Source of the DNA: a virus
Taxonomy: Duplodnaviria > Caudoviricetes
Strand: one strand, 5' to 3'
Virus record (IMG/VR): IMGVR_UViG_3300014091_000001
Coordinates: 1 to 64,000 of that record
Length of the DNA: 64,000 nt
Shown here: piece by piece, positions 34,606 through 63,756 of the stretch
How the letters are laid out: every line of letters starts with the position of its first letter
Numbering within the stretch: the first letter of the stretch is position 1
Program-made: the position numbers and the translations under genes
The notes under the pieces: generated by a model
What the model saw: only the letters and a program-made list of their open reading frames with translations
Told to the model about the DNA's origin: nothing
Databases searched by the model: none

Positions 34606-34980
34606 TTAGTTCAGCGTCAGTTGGCTGGGGCGGCAATCGTATAACTCTGCCAACTTTTCCAGTGTGGCAGAACGGGGATTAGCTGATTTCTCCAGTTGAG
34701 AAATAGCGGATTGTTTGACGCCCAGCTTTTCCGCTACATCAGCCTGTGACAGACGGCGAAAGATACGCCAGGCTGCTTGTAGCGTAACTTGGTTATCCAC
34801 CATGATGCTTATCACATCATGTGGAACGGTTTCATCATCATTGTCTCCGCTGGCAAAAGGAATAGATTGATAGTCCTCGTCACGATCAGCGGCATTCAAC
34901 AAGTCTTGATACATTTCAATAGGAAGAACAACGGAGGTGCGATTTCCTTGTTCATCAAACATGTACTGTATCTTTTGCAT
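34606..34980 (-). CDS. XRE-HTH antitoxin (HigA-like)
   Basis: C-terminal LSQADVAEKLGVKQSAISQLE HTH; downstream of a RelE toxin. Confidence 0.85.
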   Translation of the reverse strand: MQKIQYMFDEQGNRTSVVLPIEMYQDLLNAADRDEDYQSIPFASGDNDDETVPHDVISIMVDNQVTLQAAWRIFRRLSQADVAEKLGVKQSAISQLEKSANPRSATLEKLAELYDCRPSQLTLN

Positions 34981-35132: not shown

Positions 35133-35170
35133 AGTCAGAAGTGGGGGGGAAGCCCCCCCAACTTCTGACT
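35133..35170. terminator. 17-bp-stem hairpin between toxin and antitoxin
   Basis: AGTCAGAAGT-G7-AAG-C7-A-ACTTCTGACT. Confidence 0.7.
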
Positions 35171-35427
35171 TAGTACGTCTTACTTGTCCTTCGTAAAACC
35201 TCCTGAATCTCAATGATTTTTGGGCCGTTATCAAACTCAAAAATCACCCTGTAATCACCAATCGTGAGTCGATATTTCGAACCCATGTCGGTGAGTTTTT
35301 TTATATCCAGATTTACCGAAGGGAAGCCGGTAAGCATGGCTACCTTGTCCTTCACGGTTTTTTGATATCTGGTATCTATTTTCGAGAGCTGTTTAATGGC
35401 TCTTTGAGTCCAGTTTACCTTAACCAT
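35170..35427 (-). CDS. RelE/ParE-family toxin (HigB-like order)
   Basis: IKQLSKID...DIKKL...YRLTIGDYRVIF. Confidence 0.9.
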   Translation of the reverse strand: MVKVNWTQRAIKQLSKIDTRYQKTVKDKVAMLTGFPSVNLDIKKLTDMGSKYRLTIGDYRVIFEFDNGPKIIEIQEVLRRTSKTY

Positions 35428-35588: not shown

Positions 35589-35616
35589 TTGCAATATGAA
35601 GGCCAATTGTTATTCT
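35589..35616 (+). promoter_or_regulatory. Sigma70-like promoter for the C4-like leader
   Basis: TTGCAA-N16-TATTCT with TGn extension. Confidence 0.5.
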
Positions 35617-35750
35617 TTGCGCCGCAGGTCACATTACCTGTCGGGCGTGGAAACCCGGAAAAGCAAAAGACGGTTCAGAGCGTCAGAAATGACAGCTGCT
35701 CTGTACCGTAGCGTCAGCGCACCCAAAAAACGGCTAATGCCGTTCGAATT

Positions 35751-35833
35751 ATGGTGGCGCTGGCAGGGCAGCTTACGGGCTGGCCGGTATTCTTTTGCGC
35801 CGGTATTTCCACTCCTGTCAGTGTCACCACCAT
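35751..35833 (+). ncRNA. C4/CI-like antisense immunity RNA
   Basis: 15-bp closing stem (35753-67 with 35814-28, 3 G:U), two internal hairpins, loop TTTCCAC complementary to upstream GTGGAAA (35647-53); Ash-type reading MVALAGQLTGWPV. Confidence 0.7.
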
Positions 35834-35888
35834 TTTCCGTAAAGTAACTTCCCGGTGGTGATAGCAATACCAAACGAGGGATTTTACC

Positions 35889-36152
35889 GTGTCTTATCTT
35901 GCCCCTATCCTTGCCCCCATCTTACACCCCTTAGTTGCGTCCTCCGGCGATACCGGCTTAGACATGAATGCGGCAATTACTGGCCTCTTTCATGGGTACA
36001 ATTCTGAATATTGCCGCCGCCAATGCTGGACACCTGCTGAACATGTGACCCTTGAAGGGGAACAGATGGTATTCAATGACGCTGCTGGTGGAATGACAGC
36101 TTATCTCCCATCTGTAGCTGATCTACTCGCGCTGGATTGGATTCTGGTATAG
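35889..36152 (+). CDS. DUF2829/Tad2-like small protein
   Basis: AI..L..G....RR..W...YLPSVADLLALDWILV pattern; SD GAGG before the GTG. Confidence 0.6.
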   Translation: MSYLAPILAPILHPLVASSGDTGLDMNAAITGLFHGYNSEYCRRQCWTPAEHVTLEGEQMVFNDAAGGMTAYLPSVADLLALDWILV

Positions 36153-36207
36153 CCCCCACAAAACAGTAAATCCTGATCTCTGTCATACAAAAATGCATTG
36201 CCAACCT

Positions 36208-36263
36208 AATACTGTCACATCATAATCTTGTACTACTGTATTACACTATTACAATGTGACAGG
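36208..36263. repeat. Degenerate 8-bp repeat array D (par operator/centromere)
   Basis: Seven 8-bp units (AATACTGT...ATTACAAT) ending 17 bp before the parA ATG. Confidence 0.75.
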
Positions 36264-36280
36264 CTTAACGGGGGGAGTGA

Positions 36281-36907
36281 ATGATAGTACTGCTGGGTTC
36301 ACAAAAGGGCGGCGTAGGGAAATCAACGCTGGCCGTCAGTATTGCCGCTTATCTAATGGAGTTAGGTAAAACAGTTATTATTGTTGATGCCGACGATCAG
36401 AAATCAGCATTAACCTGGTATAACAACCGGGACGAAAACATGCCTCGCCTGCCTGTAGTTGCAGCTACCGGCAATATTAAAAATACCCTTATCGAAATGG
36501 ACAGGCATTACGATTTTGTCATTGCTGATAGCGCCGGACGCGATAGCTCTGAGCTCCGCTCTGGCCTGCTGGCTGCTGACATTTTCCTGTCACCCCTCCG
36601 CCCCTCTCAGATGGATCTTGATGTGGTTCCGCATACGTGCGAGGTGTTCACCACGGCGAAAGACTTTAACGAGAAAGTTAAGGGTTATCTGGTTCTCAAC
36701 ATGACACCAACAAATATGTTTGTGAATGAAGGGAATCTGGCGTCGGAAGTTCTGAAAGACTTCCCGGCTATGATGCAGGCTGAGACGCGCGTTTGCGATC
36801 GCAAAGTTTTTCGTGATACCTGGGCAACCAGTACCACTATTTTTGAAGCCGAAAACGAAAAGGCAAAAGAAGAGATTCGCAATCTGGTTAATGAGGTGAT
36901 TTTGTGA
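36281..36907 (+). CDS. parA: Short ParA ATPase (type Ib)
   Basis: Deviant Walker A QKGGVGKST, DADDQ, DSAGRD; no N-terminal HTH. Confidence 0.93.
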   Translation: MIVLLGSQKGGVGKSTLAVSIAAYLMELGKTVIIVDADDQKSALTWYNNRDENMPRLPVVAATGNIKNTLIEMDRHYDFVIADSAGRDSSELRSGLLAADIFLSPLRPSQMDLDVVPHTCEVFTTAKDFNEKVKGYLVLNMTPTNMFVNEGNLASEVLKDFPAMMQAETRVCDRKVFRDTWATSTTIFEAENEKAKEEIRNLVNEVIL

Positions 36908-61170: not shown

Positions 61171-62205
61171 ATGCCGGTATTTGACGATGCAATGTTTGAA
61201 CATCAGTACAAGGAGTTTTTAAAAGTAAAAACTGACTGGCTTGAGCTGGTGGGTTCGCTTGCCGTACATCACAGCAAAAATTCCCGGGATGAGTTAATTC
61301 GCCCGGTCGCATTTTCTAACGATGAAAGTGACTTTTATCGTGCTATTGATTTACATATTAGATGGAAAAAATTTGCTGAAATGGCCGATGAGCGACGCAA
61401 GAAAAAAAGCATTGCGATCCCAGCGTCCTTATATTCACCCGTTCCGTTAATGGTTATTGAACCAGAACGGTTTGGGTTGACGACGTTTAATGCCACCACG
61501 ACGACGACTAATACGCGTGAGGACATTTTGCAGCGTTATGAAAAGCAAAAATTAAAACTAAAGAAAATCCCATACACAGCTGACAGTATTAAAGCCCTGG
61601 ATGAGGAAGCGGCATGGTTTGCCGCCCTGCCAGAAGGTAGGCTTTTCCGTTGCCGCACCAGCGGCTATGAGGACACGATCGCAGAGATAATTTTTAAAGG
61701 AGAGCAAGAGTCCCATAAAACCCGTTACGGGGTTCATGGCGTTTTTGTTTATCATCCTAACTGGACTAAAGAAAACATTATTATTCAGGAAGGTCCATCC
61801 ATTGAATATTCGGGAAAGTACGATTTAATTTCACCCGTGAAATGCTCACTTTTCCCTGGCAGCAAACTTTATGATATCGAAGATATAAATATTGCGGACA
61901 AAAAGGCGCAACAAAGAGCGATTGTGGACCAGGCAATTCATGCCCGACGCTATAACTTCGAACGCCGGGCTAAATCACGCATGATCCGCGCTGAAACTCA
62001 GGAAAAGGCTGAAATTGTTGCAGGTCAGATCGAACAAGACCGGCAGAACATGATGAGACTCAACGAAATGGACCTGCAACTACTGGATAGAAAATTTGCG
62101 TCCGGTAATCTGAATGTGCTCAAAATGACTGAATTACGCGAAATGTACGGCGAAAAGCAGTCCCGCAGAGGAAAGAAATTCAAAGAGCTGGCTCAACGCG
62201 GCTAA
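61171..62205 (+). CDS. c1: C1-like primary immunity repressor
   Basis: Between lox and pacB, converging on pacB as in P1; Y.EF, RPV, LY.PVP, FR.R..GY..T, GVF, KY..I.P..C..FP..KLY.I.DI motifs; extra C-terminal extension. Confidence 0.75.
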   Translation: MPVFDDAMFEHQYKEFLKVKTDWLELVGSLAVHHSKNSRDELIRPVAFSNDESDFYRAIDLHIRWKKFAEMADERRKKKSIAIPASLYSPVPLMVIEPERFGLTTFNATTTTTNTREDILQRYEKQKLKLKKIPYTADSIKALDEEAAWFAALPEGRLFRCRTSGYEDTIAEIIFKGEQESHKTRYGVHGVFVYHPNWTKENIIIQEGPSIEYSGKYDLISPVKCSLFPGSKLYDIEDINIADKKAQQRAIVDQAIHARRYNFERRAKSRMIRAETQEKAEIVAGQIEQDRQNMMRLNEMDLQLLDRKFASGNLNVLKMTELREMYGEKQSRRGKKFKELAQRG

Positions 62206-62235: not shown

Positions 62236-63756
62236 TCAGTCCACCAGACTATCAAACTGTTCCAGCTCCGCCAGCGCGTCCGCGCGCTTCTCACCCATTT
62301 CAAGACCGGTTTCTTCATCAGCTGGCCGGTATGGCATTATCATTTGAAAGCAGTAGGTGTCCCAGCGGTCAGGAGACTTAATATTCAGCTTGGATCGCAT
62401 GTGCTCCTTTTTCATCATCGCTACGCGACCGTCTTCCGCTAACGCCCATGGTATTTTCGATGCCTGTTCAGCAGTTTTCTTTGAATTGTCCAGGCGCATT
62501 CTGCCACCCTGCACAGCGTCGCGCGCTGCGAAGTTCGCCCAGGCGCGCTGGTTGACGAATCGCTCTTTATCCTGGCGAGAGAAAAGTTTCTTGGGGTTCC
62601 CCCAACGGATGCGAACTACGTTAATACCGCGACGCTCCAGCTGATCTGCAGTGGCAGAACCTACGCCGTCAGCATCGACGCCAATTGTGATGTTAGGGAA
62701 TTTTGAGGGGACGCATTCGTTAGCAATGTAGTCGCCAAACTCAGTGGGGTTCATATTCCCGGGCATCTCAATGACACCGAAGGGGACGACACGCCGCTTG
62801 TCACGGTATCCGCTTACGCGAGAAATGTTCAGTACCGATTTATCGCGTCCGTTACCCACGTCAGCTGTAGCCACCCAGCCCCAGCCTTTTTCGACGTATA
62901 CGCGGCGGCGCTGAGCGCGCTCACAGGCATCCAGCCCCAGCAGAAATCCGTTAATCTCGCTGGGGAACTGGCCTAACACCTTGACCATGTACTCAACGGA
63001 ATCACGGCCGCCATACTCGGCTAACTTCATAATGATAAAGTCGAGGGTTACGAACGGCGACTCTTCGGAGTTCAGAACAATGCTTGTCCAGATACCGTTA
63101 GGGTTACTCGGTGTTTTAGCGAGAGAATGATGCGAGTCGTAAAAATAGCCACTCGGCCGCGTCGGCTGCGAGAGCATCAGCATCCTGTTATCTTTCTCGG
63201 TCAGAGCGCCGGTCATTATGCCGATCGCTTTGTCGCTAATACCCGATGCCTCATCGAGAATCAGTAACAGATGTTTGGCATGCTCACCCGCTAACGATTC
63301 TTCATTACCCAGGCGATAACCCTTGCAGAGCACTTCCCATATGCCTTTACGGGTCCGCTCATAAAACATGGTATCCGTTAGGACAAAATGGTTTTGCAAC
63401 CATGGATGCCGTTTTATTGCGTTGGTCCAGAACTGTTTGACGTATTTGAAAACGCCGGTTTTTACCTGCGAAATTTTGTTAGCGACAATTACAACGCGCG
63501 CATCAGGATACAGGATGATAAAGATCATCAGCATCATGGCCGTCAGGGAGGATTTCCCGGTACCGTGGCCGGATGTGACCGTAGTCCTGCTACCTATTTG
63601 CTGTACTGATTCAAGTATCTCGTCCTGTTGCCAGCTTGGCTCCATACCAAACAGCTCGACAACGGCCAAACCCCAATCATGGCGATACCGGATCACCATA
63701 TCGCGCCAGCGCGGGTCTTTCGTTACGCACTTTAGCTTCTTTTTGCCGGATGCCAT
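62236..63756 (-). CDS. pacB: Terminase large subunit PacB
   Basis: SGHGTGKS Walker A, LILDEA, DVG.G.DKS, SPDRWD. Confidence 0.95.
   Translation of the reverse strand: MASGKKKLKCVTKDPRWRDMVIRYRHDWGLAVVELFGMEPSWQQDEILESVQQIGSRTTVTSGHGTGKSSLTAMMLMIFIILYPDARVVIVANKISQVKTGVFKYVKQFWTNAIKRHPWLQNHFVLTDTMFYERTRKGIWEVLCKGYRLGNEESLAGEHAKHLLLILDEASGISDKAIGIMTGALTEKDNRMLMLSQPTRPSGYFYDSHHSLAKTPSNPNGIWTSIVLNSEESPFVTLDFIIMKLAEYGGRDSVEYMVKVLGQFPSEINGFLLGLDACERAQRRRVYVEKGWGWVATADVGNGRDKSVLNISRVSGYRDKRRVVPFGVIEMPGNMNPTEFGDYIANECVPSKFPNITIGVDADGVGSATADQLERRGINVVRIRWGNPKKLFSRQDKERFVNQRAWANFAARDAVQGGRMRLDNSKKTAEQASKIPWALAEDGRVAMMKKEHMRSKLNIKSPDRWDTYCFQMIMPYRPADEETGLEMGEKRADALAELEQFDSLVD

Follow-up and report, generated by a model that had tools for sequence, protein, structure and literature searches.

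Antisense RNAs of the C4/CI type are textbook regulators of antirepressors, and a C4 RNA that stands before a gene of another kind raises the question of what it still controls. We examined such a locus in the first 64 kb (64,000 nucleotides (nt), here called the window) of an 86,391-bp viral record in IMG/VR (IMGVR_UViG_3300014091_000001), where a leader and a C4-type RNA gene precede a small open reading frame (ORF) of the DUF2829/Tad2 kind. An earlier, sequence-only reading of the locus had proposed that an antisense switch gates this ORF with the same timer as in P1 and P4. All sequence elements listed in that reading are present, at or within 1-4 nt of where it had placed them, and it was right that the gene behind the C4 is not an antirepressor gene, a DUF2829/Tad2-fold ORF standing there instead of icd/ant. 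Our results differ on the control of this ORF: the window holds a genuine C4 RNA with an a1/b1 partner in its leader and a cargo of predicted Tad2 fold, and the clade to which it belongs has no a2/b2 operator. We hold this core to be likely, and what we infer beyond it concerns termination, how the RNA is processed, when the gene is expressed and what the protein does. Since the docking sites on the message of the Tad2-like gene are gone, any control left to C4 must work another way, and would differ from the canonical one by acting through a1/b1.

The C4 RNA and its partners in the leader

The Rfam C4 model (RF01695) scores 76 bits in the window (gathering score 45, E = 4.5e-13); the match spans the whole model (positions 1-87 of 87), and C4 is the sole Rfam family above threshold in the window. 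The minimum free energy (MFE) structure of the 83-nt core is a 17-bp basal stem around two hairpins (-42.6 kcal/mol), the 3' end (...CACCACCA) reads as tRNA-like with CCA, and, if processed as in P1, the mature RNA would run from about 35753 to 35832. The closest phage C4 is that of the N15-like phage phiKO2 (82.8%). With the annotated P1 record as template for the layout of the antisense segments, a' (UUUCCAC) falls in the junction after hairpin 2, on the 3' arm of that hairpin and in the multiloop, and b' in the hairpin-2 loop. The leader contains an exact 7-nt complement of a', called a1, and an exact 8-nt complement of b', called b1; the chance of such a 7-mer or 8-mer complement within a 130-nt leader is about 0.008 and 0.002, respectively. 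The first of these pairings had been noticed before, as one between an upstream target, GTGGAAAcCCGG (35647-58), which is present and includes a1, and a loop, CCGGtaTTTCCAC. The pairing is real, and the supposed loop is made up of the 3' arm of hairpin 2 and the junction, as is a' in P1, and is not a hairpin loop. The second pairing, of b' with b1, had been missed.

To quantify covariation, we aligned 51 leaders (49 distinct) from the a1b1 region through the end of C4. The a1:a' helix was 98.3% paired, with 6 of its 7 pairs altered on both sides, and the b1:b' helix was 97.4% paired, with all 8 pairs altered on both sides. Compensatory changes were likewise found in the C4 basal stem (99.9% paired) and in hairpin 1 (99.2%), and sliding the 3' partners by 1-3 columns as a control left only 36-44% paired. 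The claim of a C4-type RNA with a target in its own leader is thus borne out both by the Rfam C4 match and by the covariation of a1 with a'.

Within the clade, b' and b1 occur in two matched forms (loci are cited by our own numbers, L001 and so on). The window and L007 carry UCUUUUGC with GCAAAAGA, in which an A of b1 faces a U of b', and L001, L002, L008 and L156-L161 carry UCUUUCGC with GCGAAAGA, in which a G faces a C; in every clade member examined, the b' allele is matched by its own b1 allele. The a1/b1 pairing energies in the clade (-18.3 to -20.2) lie inside the canonical range. L007 (IMGVR_UViG_3300013999_000001) is a recombinant that combines a leader and C4 of the window type (b' with U) with an untranslated region (UTR) and ORF of the L008 type; it differs from L008 at 11 sites in the last 186 nt, and its breakpoint lies near the C4 3' end. 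The C4 basal stem also shows a stepwise compensatory path near L160 772, which is mostly G-C, G.U in L008, L156 and L159, and A-U in L160.

The hexamers and spacing of the leader promoter, which had been recognized in the earlier reading, are conserved in viral relatives and in the nearest annotated relatives, two complete circular non-mobilizable Leclercia plasmids of 90.4 and 93.5 kb, though the promoter falls below the threshold of a consensus scan (8/12). The first leader hairpin corresponds to hairpin 1 of the Rfam c4-a1b1 family (RF03163). A match to that family had been suggested as a check; the model aligns over its full length with 23.3 bits (E = 0.002), below the gathering score of 46.7, and its shape is present in the window as two hairpins with a1 in the second loop. 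Two candidate operators of the leader promoter were rejected, namely the inverted repeat GGCCTT..AAGGCC, which is not conserved in relatives, and the 13-mer TTCTGAAAGTGAA, which occurs in 11 copies against 2.1 expected, the other copies being coding and without a common extension. No site resembling the P1 C1 operator was found for the promoter, nor was the P1-type C1 operator consensus found in the record.

The a2/b2 slots and the Tad2-like cargo

The region between C4 and the ORF was compared with about 130 C4 loci from viral contigs, a sample that is biased by the search patterns used. In all of these canonical loci (~130/130), a2 is an exact 7-mer and b2 an exact 7-10-mer, and in phiKO2, phiP27 and mEp460 the C4 gene is followed by an exact a2, then CCGGUGGUGA, then an exact b2 over the Shine-Dalgarno sequence (SD), and then ATG. 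The nearest icd-type relatives (L129, L136, L138 and L139) have a C4 basal stem identical to that of the window; their homology with the window extends from the -35 element across a1/b1 and C4 as far as GGTGGTGA and no further. The string GTAACTTCCCGGTGGTGATAGC at 35844-65, read earlier as a degenerate downstream target, is present, and its complementarity to C4 as a target is only at the level of chance. We take GGUGGUGA to be a spacer because phiKO2, phiP27 and mEp460 have it between a2 and b2; spacer-type complements of at least 7 nt to the C4 3' strand, of which GGTGGTGA is one, occur in 32 of 44 distinct C4 loci, and such motifs may pair alternatively with that strand.

At the position of a2, the window matches a1 at 2 of 7 sites, relatives keeping GUGGA. 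The b2 slot agrees with b1 at 6 of 8 sites in the window and at 4-5 of 8 in relatives. In the mechanism of the sequence-only reading, C4 would pair with these degenerate sites by the SD, block translation and lead to Rho-dependent termination, giving a burst of protein on infection and silence in the lysogen. Such occlusion of the ribosome-binding site (RBS) would suit the overlap of the b2 slot with the SD, the P1-like geometry (a 7-nt spacer and 11 nt to the start), the strong conservation of the UTR in the clade and the relatives of the L149 type, in which one b2 mismatch leaves a near-canonical operator before a Tad2-like gene. The energies speak against it: the summed pairing of a'/b' with the 5'UTR is -12.4 kcal/mol in the window (z -1.2 to -1.7 against shuffled UTRs) and -11.7 to -13.5 kcal/mol in its clade (z -0.6 to -2.1), compared with a mean of -24.1 kcal/mol in 40 distinct canonical loci, which range from -19.9 (the weakest) to about -29 kcal/mol (z -3.2 to -6.2). 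The longest complements to a' and b' in the window UTR are 4 nt each, relatives with the other b' allele match b1 at only 4 of 8 sites in the b2 slot, and the sole UTR polymorphism near b2 does not track the b' allele. A timer based on RBS occlusion is unlikely here because a'/b' pair with the UTR only as well as with shuffled sequence, and we give that mechanism as a whole little credence.

A search of the 86-kb record for bipartite a-N-b targets, with at most one mismatch per half and in a sensible context, returned only a1/b1 itself. The window clade is thus without a C4 operator on the message of the Tad2-like gene, the pairing being at chance level. As a general idea, the antisense gating of a Tad2-like gene proposed in the earlier reading applies to the wider P1-like group, in which several loci have exact a2/b2 (see below), but it is not supported at this locus.

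The ORF itself is a real gene, as its pattern of conservation shows: the GTG start and a GAGG SD are conserved in all relatives, which is not the case for the internal ATG chosen by the gene caller; a 12-nt indel among relatives keeps the frame; and substitutions concentrate at third codon positions (e.g. 13/12/36). Pfam family PF11195 scores 24.2 bits on the full ORF against a cut-off of 25, the shorter gene call has a precomputed PF11195 match, and homologs reach 33-57 bits (33.5 for P0005 and 57.3 for P0008). An exhaustive phmmer search returned only seven relatives, and those with domain matches were DUF2829 proteins. Searches with peptide patterns in viral and genome contigs and with tblastn in phages found no close relatives, and matches in PLSDB were confined to the two Leclercia plasmids. 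In a profile search of PDB sequences, the top entries were only Tad2 and AcrIIA7 proteins, each weak (E 0.03-0.15). An AlphaFold 2 model from a 12-sequence alignment reached a predicted local distance difference test score (pLDDT) of 77-94 at residues 31-87 with a disordered N-terminus; a model from 6 sequences (pLDDT 53) was discarded. Foldseek ranks 1-24 for this model were all Tad2 structures (probability 0.97-1.0, template modeling (TM) score 0.5-0.6), and the matches after them had a probability of at most 0.3. The product is thus predicted to have the Tad2/DUF2829 fold.

For SPO1 Tad2 the ligand contacts are W25, N26, W73 and D79, and also T78, I63, T65, D67, H71 and S76. We mapped them through the hidden Markov model alignment of the PDB profile search. 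W25, D79 and S76 are kept (W47, D78 and S75), W73 and I63 are conservatively changed (Y72 and F62), and N26, T78, T65, D67 and H71 are replaced (T48, A77, D64, A66 and T70), so that about half of the contact residues differ. Because pockets and ligands are known to vary across the Tad2 family, the function of the protein cannot be read off from these contacts. Outside the window, at G000:72962-73192 (-), the element has another full-length DUF2829 gene of a more standard type, which scores 30.2 bits, above the Pfam cut-off; the Leclercia plasmids and the record of L007 also have two DUF2829 genes each. The N-terminal extension of the clade ORF (35889-35960 in the window, 4722-4790 in L001) contains, for example, PPIKHPLF, which resembles Icd-like N-termini such as PTHIHPKF in L146. 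It may be the trace of an icd'-DUF2829 fusion left by a deletion, the match being too short for significance.

An antirepressor was sought elsewhere in the element. Domain searches gave no ANT, Bro-N, AntA or Rha in the 86-kb record; ANT, Bro-N and Rha were also missing from both complete Leclercia replicons and from the record of L007, and tblastn of the 86-kb record with Icd, Ant1, KilA, RepL and Coi of P1 and with Icd, AntA and AntB of phiKO2 gave no match. The Tad2-fold protein might then itself be part of the lysis/lysogeny switch, as a replacement antirepressor or as a small-molecule sensor acting on the C1-like repressor, and not an anti-defence sponge. Its gene sits exactly in the ant slot, after or coupled to icd (with a 2-nt gap in L151), about half of the SPO1 contacts differ, the element has a second and more standard DUF2829 gene, and a C1-like repressor is present while no other antirepressor is detectable. 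However, every solved or tested DUF2829 protein that we found is a signal sponge or an anti-CRISPR, pockets are known to vary in the Tad2 family, and an ungated antirepressor is hard to square with stable lysogeny, yet a2/b2 are lost. We regard a role in the switch as rather unlikely.

Tad2-like genes are not a usual cargo of canonical C4s. Among 34 representative first ORFs behind such C4s, 22 encode Rha, 2 Bro-N and 1 each ORF6N, Ash and Derepression; the remainder are small and without a Pfam match, those inspected having Icd-like N-termini, and none of the 34 is Tad2-like. Conversely, every homolog of the window ORF with fetchable DNA (L146, L148, L149-L156) has a full-length C4 just upstream (72-84 bits), and all of these loci lie in P1-like contigs of 80-96 kb with DarA, LydB or RepL neighbours. 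A C4 followed by a Tad2-like gene is thus a recurring arrangement in P1-like elements.

These loci form a graded series. L151 (Citrobacter portucalensis CP101099.1) and L154/L155 have an IsrK-type leader terminator, exact a2/b2 (-22 kcal/mol, z -3.4 to -3.8) and a 61-aa Icd-like ORF followed by the Tad2-like gene. L146/L148/L152 retain the leader terminator and exact a2/b2 (-23.6 kcal/mol, z -5.4), and their icd is truncated. In L149/L150 there is neither a leader terminator nor an icd, the Tad2-like gene comes directly after C4, a2 is exact and b2 has one mismatch over the SD (-18.2 kcal/mol, z -2.1). The window clade stands at the decayed end of the series, with a2/b2 decayed to the chance-level energies given above, icd lost, the leader terminator absent or weakened, and a U-run gained after C4.

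Several of the C4 loci have further features. In the icd-containing lineages (L146, L148, L151, L152, L154 and L155), an IS605-family TnpB gene (OrfB_IS605 / Cas12f1-like_TNB) follows directly, about 30-80 nt past the stop of the Tad2-like gene. L146 and L152 lie on one element (ENA scaffold_47, 83.6 kb), which thus has two modules of C4, truncated icd and Tad2-like gene about 13 kb apart, both with the same a'/b' specificity. Four viral contigs (L016, L021, L041 and L079) have 2-3 tandem C4 genes at a spacing of exactly 656 nt; the three copies in L021 differ in a'/b' and precede Rha-type ORFs, and these tandem genes look like arrays of immunity modules.

Terminator-like features and proposed expression of the Tad2-like gene

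In canonical leaders, a GC hairpin with a T5 run directly follows b1 (68 of 71 distinct loci). In the window and L007 the stretch from b1 to C4 lacks a T-run, and the other clade members have a 5-bp hairpin with T3-T5 after b1. The IsrK model (RF01394, cut-off 50) gives 18.1 bits on the window and passes on L151, L154 and L155 with 51-53.5 bits. Directly after the C4 stem the distribution is reversed: all clade members examined have a U-run there (U4 in the window and L156, U6-U7 in the others), whereas none of the 71 distinct canonical loci has one. This was scored by a strict test for a run of four T, the number of T in the 9 nt after C4 being uninformative.

We also folded the leaders together with C4. 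The MFE structure of the full leader retains only 5 of the 27 cloverleaf pairs, a1/b1 being predicted to pair in cis with a'/b', and when a1/b1 were blocked the cloverleaf returned with 27 of 27 pairs (23 of 27 in L008). The predicted advantage of the open form is 2.7-5.9 kcal/mol in the clade and 0.4-2.9 kcal/mol in the other leaders folded.

The locus is best read as an immI-type immunity module of a P1-like phage-plasmid in which a Tad2-fold protein takes the place of icd-ant. Its promoter would fire in new hosts and probably also in lysogens, as does the P1 promoter P51b, and RNase P presumably cuts C4 out of the leader. No promoter of its own was seen for the ORF in the 55-nt gap behind C4. 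The Tad2-like ORF would most likely be expressed by read-through from the C4 promoter, without C4 blocking its RBS, because a2/b2 are at chance level and icd is gone while the match of C4 to a1/b1 is exact. In a nascent leader, a1/b1 would pair in cis with a'/b' and hold the cloverleaf open, allowing read-through into the Tad2-like gene. As free C4 builds up, it would occupy a1/b1 on new transcripts, so that the cloverleaf stem forms ahead of the U-run and transcription terminates. The outcome would be an early pulse of Tad2-fold protein without an operator on the mRNA, the gene's own RNA being the ligand of its terminator. We put forward only tentatively that the C4 module of this clade is a self-sensing attenuator of this kind; the model would account together for four changes, those in a2/b2, icd, the leader terminator and the U-run.

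Alternatively, the Tad2-like gene could be an ungated passenger with low constitutive expression driven by the C4 promoter, C4 and a1/b1 serving only as a trans-acting immunity RNA and its decoy against the icd/ant operons of related phages, superinfecting or co-resident. The 86-kb record has no a2/b2 target, the a' sequence UUUCCAC is the commonest specificity among the sampled lambdoid and N15-like C4s, and a loss of tight control would fit a cargo that is harmless in the lysogen. The predicted binding of the window C4 to the icd UTR of the L138 type, -18.8 kcal/mol, approaches the -19.9 of the weakest cognate pair, but no other of the 37 sampled icd/rha UTRs came near cognate strength. The gain of the U-run jointly with the decay of the leader terminator would be left unexplained, as would the continued linkage of the Tad2-like gene to C4 in every lineage. 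We consider this explanation possible without thinking it probable.

Several observations weigh against a1/b1-dependent termination and the loss of the operator as set out here. With only four U, the U-run of the window would terminate weakly. Canonical leaders are also predicted to adopt the cis fold, so that it is not specific to the clade, and the prediction rests on equilibrium and not on co-transcriptional folding. The joint change of b' and b1 in the clade involves two haplotypes and probably one event and is by itself modest evidence, and recombination between leader and ORF blocks is seen in L007. Conservation of the 5'UTR (35851-35891) reaches about 90% among relatives with ORFs that diverge by about 30%, so that the UTR may have some function, possibly a residual contact with C4. 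Finally, the record is about 87% complete, so that the absence of an antirepressor from it is not proof, the two complete relatives also being without one.

The host element and its place among known systems

The coordinates of the features are collected in Table 1. Genes in the window include those for a contractile-tail sheath, a Sit-like transglycosylase, Dar-like proteins, a Ref nuclease, a RepA-type initiator and a fused Dam/Dcm methylase. We read the element as a diverged P1-like phage-plasmid because of this gene content, including the PacB homolog and the C1-like repressor. The window and both Leclercia plasmids share the local order of ParE (-), leader and C4, small ORF and ParA-like gene. 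The ParE/RelE-family toxin gene and an HTH (helix-turn-helix) gene, whose product has a RelB-like N-terminus and an HTH_3 domain, are both divergent from the C4 leader; they are separated by a 190-nt gap and have a promoter-like site. Downstream, parA has its own promoter and is probably a unit separate from C4 and the Tad2-like ORF, and no terminator-like site was found between that ORF and parA, so that read-through is possible. Inverted and direct repeats in the parA promoter region (CTGTCACA ... TGTGACAG; ACTGTATTACACTATTACA) are kept in relatives and are probably the operator of the partition operon or a centromere-like site.

Table 1. Features of the C4 locus and of the P1-like element around it (positions in the window)
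Feature	Position	Strand	Remark
HTH gene	34606-34980	-	RelB-like N-terminus, HTH_3
ParE/RelE-family toxin gene	35170-35427	-	
Promoter-like site of the ParE/HTH pair	35498-35470	-	
Putative leader promoter: -35 TTGCAA (35589-94), 16-nt spacer, extended -10 TGtTATTCT (35608-16)	35589-35616	+	
Leader hairpin 1, GCAGGU-CACAUU-ACCUGU	35624-35641	+	compensatory change in relatives (GCAGGC/GCCUGU)
Hairpin CGGG-CGUGGAAA-CCCG	35642-35657	+	a1 displayed in loop
a1, GUGGAAA	35647-35653	+	exact complement of a'
b1 target, GCAAAAGA	35663-35670	+	exact complement of b', covarying family-wide
Middle leader hairpins without U-run	35670-35709 and 35729-35744	+	place of the canonical IsrK-type leader terminator
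C4 antisense RNA gene	35747-35834	+	RF01695, fold, covariation, P1-like a'/b' layout
b', UCUUUUGC	35791-35798	+	
a', UUUCCAC	35806-35812	+	
U-run UUUU directly after C4 basal stem	35833-35836	+	putative terminator
Decayed a2 slot, GUAACUU	35844-35850	+	placed relative to the GGUGGUGA spacer in canonical relatives
Spacer motif GGUGGUGA	35854-35861	+	complement of C4 3' strand UCACCACC; not a C4 target
Decayed b2 slot CCAAACGA (35870-77) overlapping SD GAGGG (35876-80)	35870-35880	+	
87-aa Tad2-like ORF, GTG start	35889-36152	+	disordered N-terminal 24 residues, then predicted DUF2829/Tad2-fold domain (~25-87)
parA promoter region with repeats	36185-36280		
parA promoter, TTGCCA-17-CATAAT	36198-36226	+	
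ParA-like partition ATPase	36281-36907	+	neighbour downstream of the Tad2-like ORF
Dmt-like (cf. P1) fused C5-cytosine and N6-adenine (D12 class) DNA methyltransferase, 671 aa	37315-39330	-	
Distant C1-like repressor	61171-62205	+	24% identity to P1 C1 over 61198-61887
PacB homolog	62236-63756	-	57% identity; adjoins the C1-like repressor, neighbourhood as in P1

We found no paper that links C4 to Tad2. A preprint reports Tad2-family genes to be common in P1/D6 phage-plasmids and does not cover their control (bioRxiv 10.1101/2025.09.12.675607). As P1/D6 phage-plasmids are common in clinical Enterobacteriaceae and many of them have such genes, that control has practical reach. New here are the chance-level a2/b2 in the clade, the graded series and the swapped position of the terminator. 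A C4 before Tad2-fold genes could mean that anti-defence is under the immunity timer, which would be a simple means of making a sponge only upon entry into a new cell, or that proteins of the DUF2829 fold also act in the lysis/lysogeny switch. The series, from operator with icd, through operator without icd, to no operator and a U-run, offers natural variants for probing the role of a1/b1, a question since the P1 work that was partly addressed by the IsrK study.

Like the Tad2/DUF2829 sponges (SPO1 gp34.65, 8SME/8SMF; ModTad2, 8V3E/9EIB; HgmTad2 = AcrIIA7, 8KBI; SptTad2, 8WJD), the cargo has the predicted fold and the C-terminal PS..D..A.DW motif, with W47, D78 and S75 kept. It differs from them in its identity of only 14-22%, a Pfam score just below the cut-off, the disordered N-terminal extension of 24 residues and its status as a second, divergent paralog within the element.

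The CI RNA of P4 and the CA RNA of N15 are processed from their own leaders and promote premature termination; in both systems complementary sites lie upstream and downstream, and the genes controlled are kil/replication or icd-ant genes. The window shares with them a leader-derived small RNA complementary to an upstream leader site, and a proposed output that is termination and not RBS occlusion. Unlike in those systems, only the upstream site is kept, and the terminator would be the C4 stem itself.

In Salmonella Gifsy-1 (IsrK/STnc1160/anrP; PMC4825925) and in lambdoid C4-Rha loci there is likewise an a1b1-type element complementary to a processed RNA of about 80 nt. In Gifsy-1 the leader terminator turns the a1b1 element into a separate small RNA (sRNA), IsrK, and the alternative fold of the full leader can be shifted by an RNA in trans (PMC4825925), which is predicted for the window also. 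IsrK differs in being a separate sRNA with its own Rho-independent terminator, which the window does not have, and the Gifsy-1 cargo is orf45 and an antirepressor-like protein.

Comparable too are the C4-icd-Tad2-like modules (L151; L146/L152; L149/L150), which have the same C4 scaffold (81-84 bits) and homologous cargo (36-46% identical), L151 and L154 also sharing the a' sequence UUUCCAC with the window. These modules keep the leader terminator, exact a2/b2 and, except in L149, an Icd-like ORF. All three are lost in the window clade, where an ORF with an N-terminal extension comes directly after C4.

The locus also has a counterpart in immI of P1/P7 (P51 promoters, a1/b1, c4, a2/b2, icd, ant1/2). 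The host elements are alike in sheath, Sit, Dar, Ref, Dmt, PacB and C1-like repressor, and the modules in the order of promoter, a1, b1 and C4, in the placement of b' in the hairpin-2 loop and a' in the junction, and in the tRNA-like CCA end. They differ in that a2/b2 are exact in P1 and at chance level in the window, in that the window has a DUF2829 cargo instead of icd and ant (the ORF shows no similarity to phiKO2 Icd or AntA) and a U-run after the C4 stem, and in that its module adjoins parA, as opposed to kilA-repL in P1. Since the operon lacks two features that define immI, a2/b2 and icd-ant, we class it as an immI-derived module and not as a member, the RNA itself being a member of Rfam C4.

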